Positions 5,969 to 64,000 of a stretch of 64,000 bases of DNA are shown one piece after another. The stretch lies in the NCBI GenBank assembly GCA_035353995.1, contig DAOQAL010000002.1, positions 28,729 to 92,728 on the forward strand. The letters are read 5' to 3'. The position numbers were made by a program, and so were the translations under genes. Positions within the stretch are counted from its first letter, which is position 1; every line of letters starts with the position of its first letter. The notes below the pieces were generated by a model. It made no database searches, was not told where the DNA came from, and saw only the letters and a program-made list of their open reading frames with translations. The stretch comes from Minisyncoccota bacterium (lineage in GTDB: Bacteria; Patescibacteriota; Minisyncoccia; Phycocordibacterales; UBA9973).

Positions 5969-6177
5969 CCTTCTAGCGTCTAATCCATATTGGATAAGGC
6001 GTTTTCATTTAATAAACAGACTTTGAAAATTTAATAGTTTGAGAACTAGTCCTGCAAAGGAGCAGGACGAAGTGCAAGTAATTTAGTTTATTTTTCAATA
6101 ATTTTATTGAGCATATGATCAAAATATATTAAACAAAAATCATTGCTGTTTTTTGTTTTGTTTCGTTCTAACAACTT

Positions 6178-7712
<1,535 letters not shown>

Positions 7713-16916: not shown

Positions 16917-16957
16917 AATTAAATTACACAGGGTAGTCCTGTGTAAAATTAGAAGTA

Positions 16958-16978
16958 GTGTCAAAGACCGTCTTTGAC
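16958..16978. repeat. REP-like perfect 21-bp palindrome TGTCAAAGACCGTCTTTGACA (copy A, intergenic)
   Basis: Exact copy of the palindrome that flanks the RAYT gene. It shares an extended ~34-bp unit with copy B (AGAAGTA-R-TGTCAAAGAC-S-GTCTTTGACAAATT). Confidence 0.6.
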
Positions 16979-17005
16979 AAATTATAAAGAATTTAAAATG
17001 AATTT

Positions 17006-17494
17006 ATGAAAATACCAGTTGTAAATGAAAATGATGAAGTAATAGAAATTAAGGACAGAAAAGATGTGGATAAAAGTCCTGAGCTAATTTACCGCGTTTC
17101 TTATCTTTGGGTTACTGATACTAATGGAAGAATACTTTTGGCTCAACGGGCATTTAATAAAAATCATAATCCAGGTAAATGGGGTCCAGCAGTAGCTGGT
17201 ACAGTTGAAGAAGGAGAAACTTATGAATCAAATATAATTAAAGAAACCGAAGAAGAAATTGGTATTAAGGACGTAAAATTAAAAATTGGGCAAAAAGAAA
17301 GAAGAAAAACTAATTATAATTATTTTGCACAAGAATTTTTGCTTGAATTGCCAGCTGGTTTTAATGATTTTAAAATTCAAGAAGTGGAGGTCGCTCAAAT
17401 TAAATGGTTTACTAAAGAGGAATTAAAAAAAGAGTTACAAGAGCACCCAGACAATTTTTTGTCATTAATTAAAAACAAAATTGATTTAATATGA
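17006..17494 (+). CDS. NUDIX hydrolase
   Basis: Nudix box GTVEEGETYESNIIKETEEEIGI (Gx5Ex7REUxEExGU). Confidence 0.7.
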   Translation: MKIPVVNENDEVIEIKDRKDVDKSPELIYRVSYLWVTDTNGRILLAQRAFNKNHNPGKWGPAVAGTVEEGETYESNIIKETEEEIGIKDVKLKIGQKERRKTNYNYFAQEFLLELPAGFNDFKIQEVEVAQIKWFTKEELKKELQEHPDNFLSLIKNKIDLI

Positions 17495-18738
17495 ATTTAG
17501 ACTTATCAAAAATTAAAAAGGTATATTTTATCGGAATCGGGGGAATTGGAATTTCGGCATTGGCGAAATGGGCCAGTGCGCGTGGAATGGAAGTTGCGGG
17601 TGTAAACGATGAAGAAGGAAAAACGACAGACTCCCTTAGAGAATTTGGTATAGAAGTAATGTCAAAGACGGTCTTTGACAAATTGCCAGAAGCTGATATG
17701 TATGTTTACTCAGATGCTTGGCTTAACCGTGGTCCAGAAATAATAGAAGACGCACGAAATACTGGTAAGCCAACCTTGTCTTATTTTGAAGCTCTTAAAG
17801 AATTTTCCAAAGATTATAAAGTTATAGCAATTTCTGGAACTCATGGTAAAACTACGACTACTGCAATGGTTGCTGATATATTAATTGATGCGGGCATAGA
17901 CCCGACGGTTATTGTTGGTTCTTTTGTTAAAAAGTTTGATAGTAATTTTCGAGAAGGCAAGAGTGAATATTTAATAGTAGAAGCTGACGAATATAATCGT
18001 CATTTTTTACAATTTAATCCTTTCATTGGTGCAGTAACCAACATCGAAGCTGACCATTTGGATTGTTATAAAGATTTAGATGATATAAAAAAATCTTTTG
18101 ATCAGTTTTTATCTCAAAGTGAACACAAAATAACAAATTACGAAAAATATTTAGAAAAAGTTCCCAAACTTCTTGTCCCTGGAGAGCACAACAGAAAAAA
18201 TGCAGCCTTAGCTCTTGCTGTTGCAGATCTTTTGGGTATTAAGGAAGAGCTTGCTATAAAATCTTTAGAAAATTTTGAAGGAACTTGGCGTCGTTTGGAA
18301 AAACGAGGGAAGACAAAAGCTGGTACCATTATTTATGATGATTATGCTCATCACCCAACAGAAGTTCGAGCTAGCTTGCAAGCATTAAGAGAGCTTTATA
18401 CAAAAGAACAAGGCAAAAAAATAACTGTAGTCTTTCAGCCACATTTGTATTCCAGAACCAAGGCTCTTTTTGACGATTTTGCCAAATGTTTCCACGGGGC
18501 GGACAAAATCGTCCTTTTGCCTATTTATTTTGCTAGAGAAAACCCTGATAAAAGCATTTCAAGCGGTCTTTTAGCAGATGCTATATGTGCAAATGGTGAT
18601 AAAGCTATAGCTTTTACTGATTTTGAACTGGCAGAAGAATATATAAAGAGTCAAACCTTTGGTAAAGATGACATTTTTGTGACTATGGGTGCAGGGGAGT
18701 CTTATAAAATAGCCGATAAGCTGTTTGATTTTCAATAA
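17491..18738 (+). CDS. murC: UDP-N-acetylmuramate--L-alanine ligase (MurC)
   Basis: VYFIGIGGIGISALA N-terminal motif, P-loop ISGTHGKTTTTAMVA, and a Mur ligase C-terminal domain. Codons 57-64 (MSKTVFDK) are encoded by the REP palindrome. Confidence 0.85.
   Translation: MNLDLSKIKKVYFIGIGGIGISALAKWASARGMEVAGVNDEEGKTTDSLREFGIEVMSKTVFDKLPEADMYVYSDAWLNRGPEIIEDARNTGKPTLSYFEALKEFSKDYKVIAISGTHGKTTTTAMVADILIDAGIDPTVIVGSFVKKFDSNFREGKSEYLIVEADEYNRHFLQFNPFIGAVTNIEADHLDCYKDLDDIKKSFDQFLSQSEHKITNYEKYLEKVPKLLVPGEHNRKNAALALAVADLLGIKEELAIKSLENFEGTWRRLEKRGKTKAGTIIYDDYAHHPTEVRASLQALRELYTKEQGKKITVVFQPHLYSRTKALFDDFAKCFHGADKIVLLPIYFARENPDKSISSGLLADAICANGDKAIAFTDFELAEEYIKSQTFGKDDIFVTMGAGESYKIADKLFDFQ
17660..17680. 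repeat. REP-like 21-bp palindrome TGTCAAAGACGGTCTTTGACA (copy B) lying in frame inside murC
   Basis: The same palindrome with the central base flipped. It lies within the murC reading frame without interrupting it. Confidence 0.6.
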
Positions 18739-25427: not shown

Positions 25428-27890
25428 ATGGCTAAAAAAACAATTGATCCAATAGAAAAAAAACCAAGAGAAGATGAAATTCTTCCAGTAAACATAGTTA
25501 GCGAAATGAAAGAGTCGTATTTGGCTTATGCTATGTCTGTTATTACATCACGTGCATTGCCAGACGTAAGAGATGGATTAAAACCTGTTCACAGAAGAAT
25601 ATTATTTGCTATGAATGAAATGGGACTTACTTCAAGTTCTAGATTTAGAAAATCCGCTGCTGTTGTTGGAGATGTTTTAGGAAAATATCATCCTCACGGA
25701 GATGTGGCAGTGTATGACACAATGGTTGGTATGGCACAAGAATTTTCTTATCGTTATCCTTTTATTTTAGGTCAAGGTAACTTTGGTTCTATAGATGGAG
25801 ACAGTGCAGCTGCAATGCGTTATACAGAGACGAAGATGGCAAAAATTTCTAATGAACTTTTAAAAGATTTAGATAAAGAAACAGTTGATTTTCGTCCAAA
25901 CTATGACCAAACACGTAAAGAACCGACAGTTCTTCCTGCAGCTGTTCCCGCATTGTTATTAAATGGAACACTTGGTATTGCTGTTGGTATGGCAACGAAT
26001 ATCCCACCTCACAATTTAGCAGAAGTTGTAGATGCAACAAGATTTTTAATTGATAAAGAAGATGCAACTACAGAAGATTTAATGCAATTTATTAAAGGGC
26101 CTGATTTTCCTACTGGTGGAATTGCTTATGGATATAAAGATATTCTTCATGCATATTCTTCAGGACGTGGAGGTGTTGTTTGTAGAGGAGAAGCTGAAAT
26201 AATTGAAACAAAAGGAGGAATGTACCAAATAGTTATAACTTCTATTCCTTTTAGAGTAAATAAAGCAAACTTAATAATGTCTATTGCAGACCTTGTTCAA
26301 GAAAAAAAGCTTGAAGGTATAAAAGGGTTAAGAGATGAATCTACAAAAGATATTCGTATAGTTATTGATTTAAAAAGTGGTGCTCATCCTGAAAAAATTC
26401 TAAATTATATTTATAAAAATACTCAACTTGAATCAAATTTCAATTTTAATATTGTTGCATTAGTTGATGGAGTGCCACAAACACTTTCTCTAAAATCTAT
26501 TCTTGTTGAATTTATTGCTCATAGACGTGATGTTATAAAAAGAAGATGTCAATATGATTTAAGAAAAGCTGAAGAACGTGAACATATTTTATTAGGTCTT
26601 AAAAAAGCCCTTGATAAAATTGATAGAATCATAACTGTTATAAGAAATTCAAAAGACGCACAGATTGCAAAAATAAATTTGATAAAGGAATTTAAATTTT
26701 CTGATTTGCAGGCAGCTGCAATATTAGAAATTAAATTACAGAAATTAGCTGGATTAGAAAGAAAAGCAGTGGAAGATGAATTAGCAGAAAAACAGAAATT
26801 TATTAAGGAAATGAAAGAACTTTTAACAAGTCCTAAAAAAATGTTGAAAGTTGTATCAGACGAATTAAAAGAAATTCGTGATAGATATTTTGATGAGAGA
26901 AGAACAAAAATAATTAAAGGAGGAGTGAAAGAAATTAATGATGAAGATTTGATTCCAGATACAGAAACTGTTCTTGTTTTCACTGCTGGTGGATACGTAA
27001 AACGTACTGATCCTAGTGAATACAGAGCACAAAAGAGAGGGGGAGTTGGTGTTGTGGATTTAGAAACAAAAGAAGAAGATTTTGTAACGATGCTTGTTTC
27101 AGGGTCTACTCATAATGATTTGTTGTTCTTTACTAATACAGGAAAAGCTTATCAAATGAAAATGTATGATATTCCTGAAGGACGTCGTGCAACAAAAGGA
27201 AAATCAATTATGAACTTCTTGTCTCTTTCTGGAGATGAAAAAGTCACATCTATTTTGTCTCTACCAAAAGAAGCCAAAAAACTTCCTTCTTCTTTGGTTC
27301 TTGTAACAAAAAATGGAACAGCGAAAAAAATGTCAGGGGAAAGCTTTAAAGATGTTCGCCGAAGTGGAATTATTTCAATAAGATTAGATAAAGGTGACCA
27401 ATTAGTTCAAGCTCTTTTAGTTGATAAAGGTGACGAGATAATGATTGCAACAGAAGGAGGTCAGTCAATAAGATTCAAAGAAAGTGATGTTAGAGAAATG
27501 GGAAGAACTGCTGGCGGAGTGCGAGGAATTAAATTAGGAAAAAATGATGAAGTAATTGGTGTTGATGTTATTAAAAAAGATCAAAAAGATGGAGCATTTC
27601 TTACAATGAGTGCAAATGGTTTTGGTAAAAAAACTGCTCTTAAAGAATATAAAGTACAAAAGCGTGGTGGTTCAGGAATCAAAACAGCAAAAGTTACAAC
27701 AAAAACAGGAAAATTGATTGTAGCAAAAGTTTTGAGTACTGAAGAAGAAGAACTAATAGCAATGTCAAAAAAGGGACAAGTAATTAGAACTGCTCTAAAA
27801 GATATTCCATCATTAGGACGTCAAACTCAAGGAGTTACAATAATGCGTCTTCGCGCAGGGGACGGTATTGCATCTCTTACCTGCATGTAA
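25428..27890 (+). CDS. gyrA: DNA gyrase subunit A
   Basis: [26 protein letters not shown], the active-site Tyr region, and C-terminal beta-pinwheel repeats with GyrA-box-like QKRGGSG. Confidence 0.95.
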
Positions 27891-27909
27891 ATTTCTCAAA
27901 CTCTCAAAC

Positions 27910-27930
27910 TGTCAAAGACCGTCTTTGACA
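27910..27930. repeat. REP palindrome TGTCAAAGACCGTCTTTGACA (copy C) overlapping the 3' end of the RAYT gene
   Basis: The last 7 codons of the RAYT ORF (KHVKDGL*) are read from this palindrome. Confidence 0.65.
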
Positions 27931-28541
27931 TGCTTGGTGTTATTGGCTATAGTTTCTTTTTCGAAATCTTTTTTGCTGAAAACTGATTCTAAAAAATCTT
28001 TAAATACGATTGATGAATTTCTATTTTCGGTAAAATCTTTATAGCTACTCCATTTATATTGACCAGGGTGTTTAACTAAACCATCCTTTACTGGATTCAT
28101 ATGTATATAAGCGGAAGTCCACATAAACTGCGGATTGTTTTCAATATTTACTGCTTTAAATTTATCTTGAAATACATGTCCAACTTTTTTATATTTTAAA
28201 TTTAGATATTTTGCATAGCTAGTACATGTTTGAGATATTAGCCTAGAAATAGGAACATCTCCGCATTGTTCTATCAATAAATGAAAATGATTTGGCATAA
28301 GGCAAAAAGAATGTAATTTAAATGATTTAGCATTTCCGTTTATTCTAATTCGTGAATTTTTTACTGACGATATGTCATCTTTTTTTAGAATTTCTTTATC
28401 TACTCCGAGAGATAGACCAAGTCTAAAAAGGAAAGCATTATAGTCGCTTTCTTCGTGGAAAATTTTTTCTTTATTATTACCTCGATTGTAAACATGCACC
28501 AAAGCACCAGGCATAAATGTTTTATAGTCTCTATTGTTCAT
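27912..28541 (-). mobile_element. REP-associated tyrosine transposase (RAYT), IS200/IS605 TnpA-like Y1 HUH enzyme
   Basis: HUH motif CLMPNHFHLLI. C-terminal catalytic-Tyr helix FMWTSAYIHMNPVKDGLVKHPGQYKWSSYKDF closely parallels E. coli RAYT (YafM) ...[28 protein letters not shown] as recalled from memory. N-terminal HVYNRGNNKEKIF. Flanked on both sides by the same palindrome. Confidence 0.8.
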
Positions 28542-28551
28542 AAATCAATTA

Positions 28552-28572
28552 TGTCAAAGACCGTCTTTGACA
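28552..28572. repeat. REP palindrome TGTCAAAGACCGTCTTTGACA (copy D), 11 bp upstream of the RAYT start codon
   Basis: Exact 21-bp copy. Confidence 0.65.
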
Positions 28573-28646
28573 GCAAGGAGATTGTTAATAACTATAGACA
28601 ACTATAGGCGAAAAAGATTTTTTATACTATAATATATAGTATATAT

Positions 28647-29174
28647 ATGTTTGCTGATCCGATAAAAAATTTAAAACAACTTGGATTAAGAGAAGATATG
28701 ATTGTAGCTGATTTAGGGGCGGGAACAGGTTTTTATTCTATTGCTGCAGCAAAAATGGTACCAAATGGAAAAGTATATGCTATAGAAGTAATAAAAGATT
28801 ATTTGATTACTATAAAAAATAAAGCGAAAGAATTTCATATTAACAATCTTGAATGTTTTTGGGGAGATATTGAAAAACTTGGTGGAACAAAATTAAAAGA
28901 TGGCATTGTTGATGCTGTTATACTTTCGAATATTTTATCTCAAATTGAGGACAAGAGTGGTCTTGTTCTTGAAGTTAAAAGAATATTAAAACAAAATGGT
29001 AAGGTTCTTGTAGTAGACTGGTCTGAATCTTCTGCTTTAGGTCCAAAACCAGATAAAATAATTTTGAAAGATAAAGTAGTTGAAATATTTGCAAAAAAAG
29101 GATTAACTTTTAATCGTGATATTGATGCTGGTAGTCATCATTATGGTATTGTTTTAACAAATAAAAAAATATGA
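28647..29174 (+). CDS. Class I SAM-dependent methyltransferase
   Basis: Motif I VADLGAGTGFYSIAAA and motif post-I/II spacing typical of Methyltransf_11/25. Confidence 0.6.
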   Translation: MFADPIKNLKQLGLREDMIVADLGAGTGFYSIAAAKMVPNGKVYAIEVIKDYLITIKNKAKEFHINNLECFWGDIEKLGGTKLKDGIVDAVILSNILSQIEDKSGLVLEVKRILKQNGKVLVVDWSESSALGPKPDKIILKDKVVEIFAKKGLTFNRDIDAGSHHYGIVLTNKKI

Positions 29175-62963: not shown

Positions 62964-62979
62964 GGTTTTATTAGTTAGA

Positions 62980-63017
62980 AACCCCGAAAGTCGAAGTCGG
63001 GAAATAAAATAAATAAA
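62980..63017 (+). repeat. 38-bp 5'-UTR element AACCCCGAAAGTCGAAGTCGGGAAATAAAATAAATAAA (copy 1), ending 3 nt before the ATG at 63021
   Basis: Identical 38-mer recurs at 63305-63342 in front of dnaK. Contains a CCCGA...UCGGG stem. Confidence 0.5.
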
Positions 63018-63020
63018 TAT

Positions 63021-63299
63021 ATGATAGATCCAAAAAAAATAGATTTTAATCAATTGCCAAAGAAGTTTTGTGACGGAGCAATTGGAGCATTTAATAAAGA
63101 ATCATTTTTCTTTGCTTTCACATCCGGAAATAATTTGGATGTCTTTGCTACTACTCCGAGAACAATGAAAGATATTGCGATTTTTCTGACAAGACATGTT
63201 GAAAATTATGAAAAACAATTCGGAGAAATAGATATGACCATTCCTGAAATACCGAGCCCACTTCAAATGTCCGATTTGGGTAGTTCTGATAAAAAATAA
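63021..63299 (+). CDS. DUF3467-like small protein
   Basis: GAIGAFNKESFFFAFTSGNNLDVFATTPRTMKDIAIFLTRHVENYEKQFGEI follows the DUF3467 pattern (A....HS.SEF.LDF...P.......R....P.HAK.L...L.ENV..YE) as recalled from memory. Confidence 0.4.
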   Translation: MIDPKKIDFNQLPKKFCDGAIGAFNKESFFFAFTSGNNLDVFATTPRTMKDIAIFLTRHVENYEKQFGEIDMTIPEIPSPLQMSDLGSSDKK

Positions 63300-63304
63300 T
63301 TACA

Positions 63305-63342
63305 AACCCCGAAAGTCGAAGTCGGGAAATAAAATAAATAAA
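63305..63342 (+). repeat. 38-bp 5'-UTR element (copy 2), 13 nt upstream of the dnaK ATG
   Basis: Exact repeat of the 62980-63017 element. Confidence 0.5.
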
Positions 63343-63349
63343 AATATAA

Positions 63350-64000
<651 letters not shown>

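Follow-up and report, generated by a model that had tools for sequence, protein, structure and literature searches.

A RAYT-like enzyme of Paceibacteria and its probable cognate hairpin, a short palindrome often lodged within genes

The stretch of DNA analysed here (the window) comprises 64,000 nucleotides of contig DAOQAL010000002.1 from a Minisyncoccota bacterium and encodes a protein of 209 amino acids (aa) whose gene is bracketed by two copies of a perfect 21-nt palindrome. Analysis of this gene, the palindrome and their relatives indicates that they probably represent a vertically inherited system of the repetitive extragenic palindrome (REP)/REP-associated tyrosine transposase (RAYT) type, residing in Paceibacteria of the candidate phyla radiation (CPR) and possessing a cognate family of single-stranded DNA (ssDNA) hairpins. 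An initial annotation, prepared from the letters of the window alone, had proposed a REP/RAYT system in a CPR-type genome. The genome does belong to the Paceibacterota and the proposal was right in kind, while the copy at 17660 within murC and the intragenic, frame-specific and often length-neutral majority of copies had been missed. REP/RAYT systems are generally viewed as extragenic and species-specific, and as belonging mainly to Proteobacteria, and a search of the literature available to the analysis found no paper linking RAYTs or REPs with CPR bacteria or Patescibacteria. The protein family itself was known beforehand; its palindrome partner was not.

The minus-strand open reading frame (ORF) at 27912..28541 had been described as an HUH/Y1 protein, and analysis of its product confirmed that description. 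The protein matches the Pfam family Y1_Tnp (PF01797) with 40.2 bits against a gathering cut-off of 23 (E=4.4e-10), carries the HUH motif H85-F-H87 and a catalytic-type tyrosine (Y145), and terminates at a stop codon supplied by the palindrome. In an alignment with 37 homologues that are 61-80% identical, N84-H85-F86-H87, Y145, H147 and N149 are invariant. The resemblance to E. coli YafM given in the initial annotation was recovered from sequence and from predicted structure. TnpA_REP of E. coli (4ER8) is the sole PDB sequence match (E=0.012), with the HUH motif and tyrosine helix of the window protein aligning to the HMH motif and tyrosine helix of 4ER8, and it is likewise the best Foldseek match (E=2.8e-7, target TM 0.70) of an AlphaFold model of the 209-aa protein (pLDDT 85.4, pTM 0.86). 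The top five PDB matches of this model are all Y1 transposases, with those of IS200, IS608 and ISDra2 at E values of 3e-4 or weaker, about 1000-fold below 4ER8. These results support the assignment of the window protein as a Y1/HUH enzyme nearest to the RAYTs. Its homologues number more than 2,400; the top 120 are all at least 61% identical, about 205-225 aa in length and from Patescibacteria, and several Patescibacteria homologues have already been annotated as RayT by the Joint Genome Institute (JGI). The C-termini of RAYT homologues follow the pattern VKD[G/A/S/R][L/P]*, which is the palindrome translated in its stop frame.

The palindrome, TGTCAAAGAC-S-GTCTTTGACA, consists of 10-nt arms around a single unpaired centre base (C or G). 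Four exact copies are present in the window, at 16959-16979, 17660-17680 (centre base G on the plus strand), 27910-27930 and 28552-28572, where 100 shuffles gave an expectation of zero even with three mismatches allowed. The count of four and the bracketing of the gene by two of them agree with the initial annotation, several details of which required adjustment. The upstream copy (28552..28572, no strand) occupies the divergent intergenic region between the RAYT gene and a methyltransferase gene and does precede the start codon, although it ends 10 nt rather than 11 nt before the RAYT ATG. The downstream copy (27910..27930, no strand) begins 20 nt past the gyrA stop and does overlap the end of the convergent RAYT gene, of which it encodes the last five sense codons plus TGA (VKDGL*) and not seven codons. 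A 34-bp extended unit exists as well, but is common only to 16950-16983 and 17651-17684. No lone exact 10-nt half-site was found in the window, and a search for diverged window copies with TGTCAAAG-N5-CTTTGACA and up to three mismatches returned the same four copies only.

Modelled as ssDNA, the palindrome forms a hairpin whose 9-bp stem closes on a loop of 3 nt, with folding energies between -7.2 and -7.6 kcal/mol and z values from -4.4 to -6.7. No asymmetric GTAG/CGTC-like tag or target motif was found beside the 21-mer, the dyad is perfect and offsets 2-8 carry no signal. The only flank preference outside the dyad is R at -1 and Y at +1, the two being complementary in 55 of 114 copies against 40 expected. 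The centre base is the sole orientation marker of this otherwise symmetric element. Reading an orientation from it was rejected, because it is inconsistent around the RAYT gene, is divided on coding strands (35 G versus 26 C) and flips between orthologous copies. The inverted REPs of the initial annotation presuppose an orientation, which this symmetric element with its inconsistent marker does not display. A hairpin with a GTAG loop, TTACACAGG-GTAGT-CCTGTGTAA (16924-16946), lies directly after an Amphi-Trp ORF and 3 nt ahead of the intergenic 34-bp unit; it was considered as a second REP family and rejected, being unique in the window.

The relationship between enzyme and palindrome was evaluated across species by scanning the exact 21-mer against one genome per GTDB species, the resulting loci being labelled with L-numbers. 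RAYT orthologues of 56-64% identity are encoded at 13 of the 21-mer-bearing loci, and the palindrome is found next to the gene in 13 of 13, one position lying shortly before the start codon and the other at the stop or overlapping it. Both ends are occupied in 10 of these loci and the only recoverable end in L005, L026 and L041, an end being examined only where the contig and the tblastn match reached it (L041 was read from its flank listing and its methyltransferase/solute-binding protein synteny). The palindrome that had been tied to this gene in the window thus flanks every RAYT orthologue examined, and it changes with the RAYT lineage. P0039, a RAYT of another subclade (C-terminus VKDRP*) in the same synteny, has a second form of the palindrome, variant B (TGTCAAGGACsGTCCTTGACA), at both ends. 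RAYT paralogues of 31-36% identity are flanked by other perfect palindromes, GCCATAAGTC-G-GACTTATGGC and ACGGAAGC-nnn-GCTTCCGT, and distant paralogues also hold copies of their own palindromes inside their own ORFs (L032 6988-7767; L015 5537-6097; L035 131-174; L177 16018-16044). This co-variation of RAYT lineage with palindrome is the strongest argument that the hairpin would be the cognate DNA of the enzyme.

The genomic setting of the gene is equally constant. In at least nine other Paceibacteria species the order is gyrA, RAYT on the opposite strand, a SAM (S-adenosylmethionine) methyltransferase, a solute-binding protein and pilin-like genes; in the window, gyrA lies at 25428..27890 (plus strand) and the class I SAM methyltransferase, divergent from the RAYT gene, at 28647..29174 (plus strand). 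Loci sharing gyrA, RAYT, methyltransferase and solute-binding protein are L011, L019, L026, L042, L049, L062, L066, L088, L094 and L177. The conserved synteny with gyrA and the methyltransferase indicates that the RAYT is vertically inherited and not hopping. These observations bear directly on the possibility of an autonomous, currently mobile IS200-like element of about 660 bp (hairpin-RAYT-hairpin), of which the solo palindromes would be footprints or miniature derivatives. Such an element would be in keeping with the Y1 fold, with the same hairpin at either end and the 100% identity of the window copies, and with the different gene neighbourhood of two orthologous loci, L030 and L005. However, each locus set holds a single copy, which retains the gyrA/methyltransferase synteny across species although their RAYTs are only 56-64% identical; the ends are identical and symmetric rather than distinguishable as left and right; solo palindromes are found at orthologous positions from one species to another; and the 21-mer occurs in 0 of 2.9 million viral contigs searched for phage carriage. 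We consider a mobile element of this kind highly improbable. The earlier suggestion that the element may still be active, which was based on the 100% identity of the copies, is not sustained either: the same 21-mer is found in 62 species-level assemblies and the gene in conserved synteny, so the identity reflects constraint and not recent activity. In all relatives, the block of RAYT, methyltransferase and solute-binding protein is followed by a run of small T4SS_pilin/TrbC-like genes (window 30489 onward; L177 5637-7663; L179 2910-5343).

The placement of the two flanking copies is itself conserved. The upstream context cTTGc-PAL-TAAT-N6-start is kept in 7 of 12 orthologous loci, with a -10-like box after the palindrome in the remainder, and judging by these motifs the upstream palindrome probably overlaps the RAYT core promoter. 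The position of the downstream palindrome is unchanged in orthologues. A promoter/terminator scan of 27700-28800 gave counts equal to those of shuffles, with one terminator-like call, and was not used as evidence. Also in the divergent RAYT/methyltransferase intergenic region, 8-10 nt past the upstream palindrome, is a GTTAT[T/C]AACAA motif (window ~28585-28595) that is conserved in L011, L062, L088, L094 and L177. On the right arm of the downstream palindrome is built the sequence TTGACA-17 nt-TATAGT (27925-27953, plus strand; 11/12 to consensus), which faces into the 3' end of the RAYT gene on the opposite strand and could drive transcription of an antisense RNA.

Results of the species scan place the exact 21-mer in 97 stretches from those 62 assemblies, almost all of them Nomura-, Zambryski- or Paceibacterota, with 1-8 exact copies per metagenome-assembled genome (MAG) and a density of about 1 per 16 kb in the window. 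Locus GC ranges from 29 to 54% overall and from 29 to 51% in CPR-type loci; the 54% GC locus, L040 (Prevotella), is an unrelated match within a local AGACGGTCTTT repeat. Four contigs assigned to other phyla, L049 and L083 (a Simkania MAG), L016 (a Bacteroidota MAG) and L095 (a Burkholderiales MAG, 31% GC), have CPR-type genes or composition and look mis-binned. Most copies are single, a minority being tandem pairs with 4-18-nt spacers. The ACGGAAGC…GCTTCCGT palindrome is also found between genes in a genome with a variant-B RAYT.

The geometry of the element is strictly maintained while its inner stem varies. Across related loci totalling 789 kb, the pair TGTCAA…TTGACA was counted 142 times with a spacing of 9 and twice with any other, spacings of 6-8 and 10 being absent. 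Inner-stem variants are compensatory (GGAC-n-GTCC, AGGG-n-CCCT, GGTT-n-AACC), and orthologous murC sites display AAGGC-C-GCCTT, AAGGG-T-CCCTT and similar stem-keeping forms. These variants help to differentiate a hairpin from a duplex operator or nucleoid-protein site that is recognized by a dimeric protein in the manner of parS, matS or Noc. Sites of the latter type are also located inside genes and conserved across species, and the low copy number, the perfect dyad, the presence in genes without length change, the clade-wide conservation and the position over the RAYT promoter would all suit such a site. Complementary changes in both arms, seen among copies of one genome and among alleles of one orthologous site, nevertheless show that intra-strand pairing is kept rather than a half-site, and co-variation with the lineage of an HUH enzyme points to an enzyme acting on single strands. 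A duplex site is accordingly a very unlikely explanation.

Among 115 exact non-redundant copies, 62 (54%) lie deep in ORFs, a class requiring an ORF length of 150 codons or more and no fewer than 20 codons between the palindrome and either end. Because genes make up about 83% of these loci, the copies are somewhat depleted in genes, yet far from extragenic. Their reading frame is almost fixed: 61 of the 62 deep copies are translated as xSKTVFDx and one as CQRxSLT, and the third frame holds TGA. The host genes have housekeeping functions and encode leucyl-tRNA synthetase (LeuRS, three sites), UvrC, MurC, LigA (three sites), threonyl- and arginyl-tRNA synthetases (ThrRS and ArgRS), a BipA/TypA-like GTPase, a cysteine-desulfurase-like enzyme, an RNase H-like protein and a reverse-transcriptase-like protein; most of these names were read from conserved motifs, with LigA identified via NCBI records and the Mur-ligase and BipA domains via Pfam. 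Orthologues from different species share occupied sites, which hold either one copy or two in tandem, the canonical form together with variant B.

This occupation of orthologous sites raises the alternative that the hairpin serves the cell itself, at the RNA level or as a DNA structure (in protecting mRNA 3' ends, in pausing or termination, or as a site for gyrase or a nucleoid protein), and is maintained by ordinary selection, the RAYT being a bystander that uses it as a promoter and terminator. The alternative readily accommodates exact conservation at orthologous sites in many species. Intergenic copies are often extended to aaaag-PAL-ctttt or have T-runs after them, which is terminator-like, the 27910 copy follows the gyrA stop by 20 nt, and a symmetric element yields an RNA hairpin in either orientation. 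A terminator within LeuRS, MurC, LigA or UvrC, on the other hand, would be harmful; no Rfam family was matched at the hairpins; and loop variants recurring at unrelated loci speak for copying rather than for convergent selection. The alternative also leaves unexplained why four RAYT lineages have their own palindromes at both ends. Taken on its own, a host function therefore appears to us a rather unlikely origin of the pattern.

The manner in which copies came to reside in genes was best seen in murC and ligA. The intragenic copy of the window (17660..17680, no strand) is located in murC, encoding UDP-N-acetylmuramate-L-alanine ligase (17491..18738, plus strand; 343 metagenome relatives, Mur_ligase neighbours), in the frame M-S-K-T-V-F-D. 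Comparison with 45 close relatives, fetched by protein similarity, revealed three kinds of allele at this site: the canonical palindrome with C, G or T at its centre, forms that retain TGTCAAAG/CTTTGACA around a different inner stem or loop, and ordinary codons. Palindrome-free proteins of the VFKKDFK and FQKDFKE types have the same length as those with the palindrome. Exceptions are a few variant alleles with 2-3 extra residues and a handful of palindrome-free orthologues in which longer, unrelated insertions occur at the site (L116, L126, L133, L134). A single ancient gain was rejected, since a neighbour-joining (NJ) tree, albeit one too crude for event counts, scatters palindrome-bearing alleles among palindrome-free ones.

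An analogous situation exists in LigA, where site B retains 18/18 residues in 120 of 120 orthologues from a protein-similarity set. The native motif there is M[A/P/S]K[S/T]VF[D/E/N], and 12 of the 120 carry MSKTVFD. At the DNA level, three MSKTVFD alleles and L039 read exactly ATG TCA AAG ACs GTC TTT GAC A, with variation at neighbouring synonymous positions, and MurC alleles retrieved by protein similarity use the same exact codons, again with flanking synonymous sites that vary. The constraint across species is on the DNA. A partly decayed LigA copy, TGTCAAAGACAGTCTTCAAT, is present in L183. The loop variant TGTCAAAGAGACACTTTGACA recurs at three unrelated loci (a LigA allele, murC in L122 and upstream of the RAYT gene in L062), which argues for templated copying. 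Length-neutral sites include those in MurC, LigA (2 sites), the reverse-transcriptase-like gene and others, and clear insertions elsewhere add 5 to 9 residues. Both modes, insertion and length-neutral occupation, therefore occur, the neutral cases being those in which the native peptide already resembles SKTVFD.

The window also provides a case of local copying. Upstream of a NUDIX gene, the intergenic 34-bp unit TAGAAGTA-G-palindrome-AATT (16950..16983, plus strand) forms a direct repeat, 94% identical, with the unit in murC (17651..17684, plus strand), its presumed donor. The flanks of the intergenic unit, TAGAAGTA (I-E-V) and AATT (K-L), belong to the native coding sequence of murC, as palindrome-free orthologues show, so that the shared 34 bp include 8 nt of native murC on the 5' side and 4 nt on the 3' side. 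In relatives murD usually abuts murC; in the window, the Amphi-Trp ORF, the 34-bp unit and the NUDIX gene lie in between. The shared murC flanks indicate that the segment copied to a site about 700 bp distant extended beyond the hairpin, and such a segment would fit cleavage outside the stem, in the fashion of Y1 enzymes.

Length neutrality and frame bias are also properties of the DNA uptake sequences (DUS) of Neisseria and the uptake signal sequences (USS) of Pasteurellaceae, which have a short, non-palindromic core and occur singly at about 1 per kb. An uptake-like drive, in which motif-bearing DNA is preferentially taken up and recombined by competent, nucleotide-scavenging cells, would explain an in-situ origin where the peptide is already similar, the bias towards genome-maintenance genes, the patchy distribution on the murC tree and the sharing of one motif by a whole clade. 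The likeness is one of outcome only, namely an in-situ, length-neutral, frame-biased build-up in tolerant protein segments throughout a clade. The present system differs by a roughly 16-fold lower density (4 copies in 64 kb) and by its strict association and co-variation with a transposase lineage, which uptake does not predict; discrete recurring variants and insertions would likewise be unexpected. No lone exact 10-nt half-site is present in the window, and on this ground the uptake-signal idea was rejected; we give it scarcely any credence.

Comparison with characterized systems clarifies which aspects of the proposed REP/RAYT-type system are familiar. It resembles the E. coli REP/TnpA_REP pair (RAYT, YafM; 4ER8) in its Y1/HUH enzyme, in the layout of HUH motif and tyrosine helix, and in a gene bracketed by a dispersed palindrome. 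It differs in having a fully symmetric hairpin without a GTAG tag, tens of copies at most rather than hundreds, and 54% of them deep in ORFs, where classical REPs are extragenic; the window protein is also 44 aa longer at its C-terminus than TnpA_REP. Inverted REPIN doublets or BIME-like clusters are the usual unit of REPs, whereas copies here are mostly single. In the REPIN-RAYT systems of Pseudomonas, associated with Bertels and Rainey, a RAYT reportedly remains at a single locus, is inherited vertically, co-evolves with its palindromes and persists with them for long periods at orthologous sites. The single-locus, vertically inherited RAYT and the co-evolving palindromes at orthologous sites described here are alike, although these are single hairpins, intragenic, frame-restricted, and identical across many species rather than species-specific. 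IS200/IS605 elements (IS608 and ISDra2 TnpA) share the HUH/Y1 fold and offer a parallel in their recognition of subterminal ssDNA hairpins; the present system, in contrast, has no distinct ends, no tnpB and no multi-copy whole element, but one syntenic locus.

Palindromes within genes also have precedents. Di Nocera et al. (2013) described REPs inside genes, especially repair genes (uvrA/B, ligase) and those of aminoacyl-tRNA synthetases, and REP termini that give stop codons (PMC3733652), the same hairpin-derived stop at a flanking copy as is seen here. In the RPE-4/-6 elements and the GTAG REPs of Opitutus terrae, intragenic copies are a minority of a mainly intergenic family and constitute insertions of 20-30 aa, often as dimers, and the CGTC class of REPs has no known transposase (PMC3733652). 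The Rickettsia palindromic elements are similar in being in-frame palindromes within functional genes of the same host classes; in the present case, the intragenic copies are the majority, span 7 codons, are often length-neutral rather than always insertions, and are tied to a RAYT. Intragenic REPs and the protein family are thus known, and the absence of a tag, the symmetry, the mostly intragenic location and the few copies are what differ.

The system that we propose would operate as follows. The enzyme would be a Y1/HUH single-strand DNA nuclease-ligase of the RAYT kind, and its cognate substrate a 21-23-nt hairpin, R-TGTCAAAGAC-S-GTCTTTGACA-Y, formed in single-stranded DNA at replication forks or transcription bubbles, where it would be bound and cleaved. 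One hairpin, over the RAYT promoter region, would probably exert feedback control, a second would provide the RAYT stop codon, and further copies would be dispersed in the chromosome, those within genes in the one frame that gives a harmless peptide (SKTVFD). New copies might arise by two routes: insertion, which adds 5-9 residues or tandem pairs and is exemplified by the 34-nt murC-flanked patch copied 700 bp upstream, and length-neutral conversion of look-alike coding sequence (MAKSVFD in LigA, VFKKDFK in MurC). Across species, each copy would subsequently be kept identical at every base, whether through correction that depends on the RAYT or through selection acting on the hairpin itself.

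Several points weigh against this interpretation. The RAYT identity given in the initial annotation holds in that the Y1_Tnp score is above threshold and TnpA_REP is the nearest relative, but the only NCBIfam match, REP_Tyr_transpos (NF047646), reaches 65.2 bits and is thus under the equivalog cut-off of 80. The asymmetric GTAG/CGTC-type tag is absent at the 21-mer copies, and the copy number is very low for a REP family. We know of no Y1 'peel-and-paste' step that swaps target DNA without a change in length. The apparent repeated gain at murC, given the crude NJ tree, could be allele exchange, and conservation at orthologous sites could reflect a host function independent of the enzyme. Nor does the interpretation account for the exact replacement of seven codons by 21 nt or for the identity of the element across genomes of 29-51% GC.

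A bolder reading goes further. A RAYT-dependent process may overwrite look-alike stretches in essential genes with the enzyme's own 21-nt hairpin and correct all copies to a master class-wide, by exchanging 'cassettes' or converting short patches between ssDNA hairpins in a manner that preserves length and is compatible with the frame. To our knowledge, propagation and concerted maintenance of this kind have not been described for any HUH enzyme, and we advance the reading only tentatively, as one that is more doubtful than probable.

Other features of the window include a complete 16S rRNA gene (6177-7712, plus strand), with no 23S rRNA gene within the 64 kb, from which it follows that the rRNA genes are unlinked. 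A 25-nt inverted repeat, 96% complementary, surrounds the 16S gene (6145-6169/7867-7891) and is probably a processing stem. A 58-nt repeat with a GC-rich hairpin inside occurs twice, 325 nt apart and 90% identical (62972-63029 and 63297-63354), and a 47-nt coding repeat is present in six copies between 21499 and 22484 at spacings of about 150-310 nt.

A RAYT-linked hairpin that is unchanged in dozens of CPR species of very different GC, mostly inside essential genes, has consequences for the study of these organisms. The 21-mer is a sharp lineage marker, as illustrated by the four mis-binned-looking contigs that it exposed, and where SKTVFD appears in CPR proteins, it should be regarded as 'graffiti' of the underlying DNA rather than as a protein motif. 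Should RAYT-dependent overwriting be true, a relic of a mobile element would be shaping the sequence of core proteins in minimal genomes. If the enzyme drives the pattern, it would reveal that HUH enzymes can spread DNA and render it uniform in a novel manner; if selection drives it, intragenic ssDNA or RNA hairpins would have an unrecognised function in minimal genomes.

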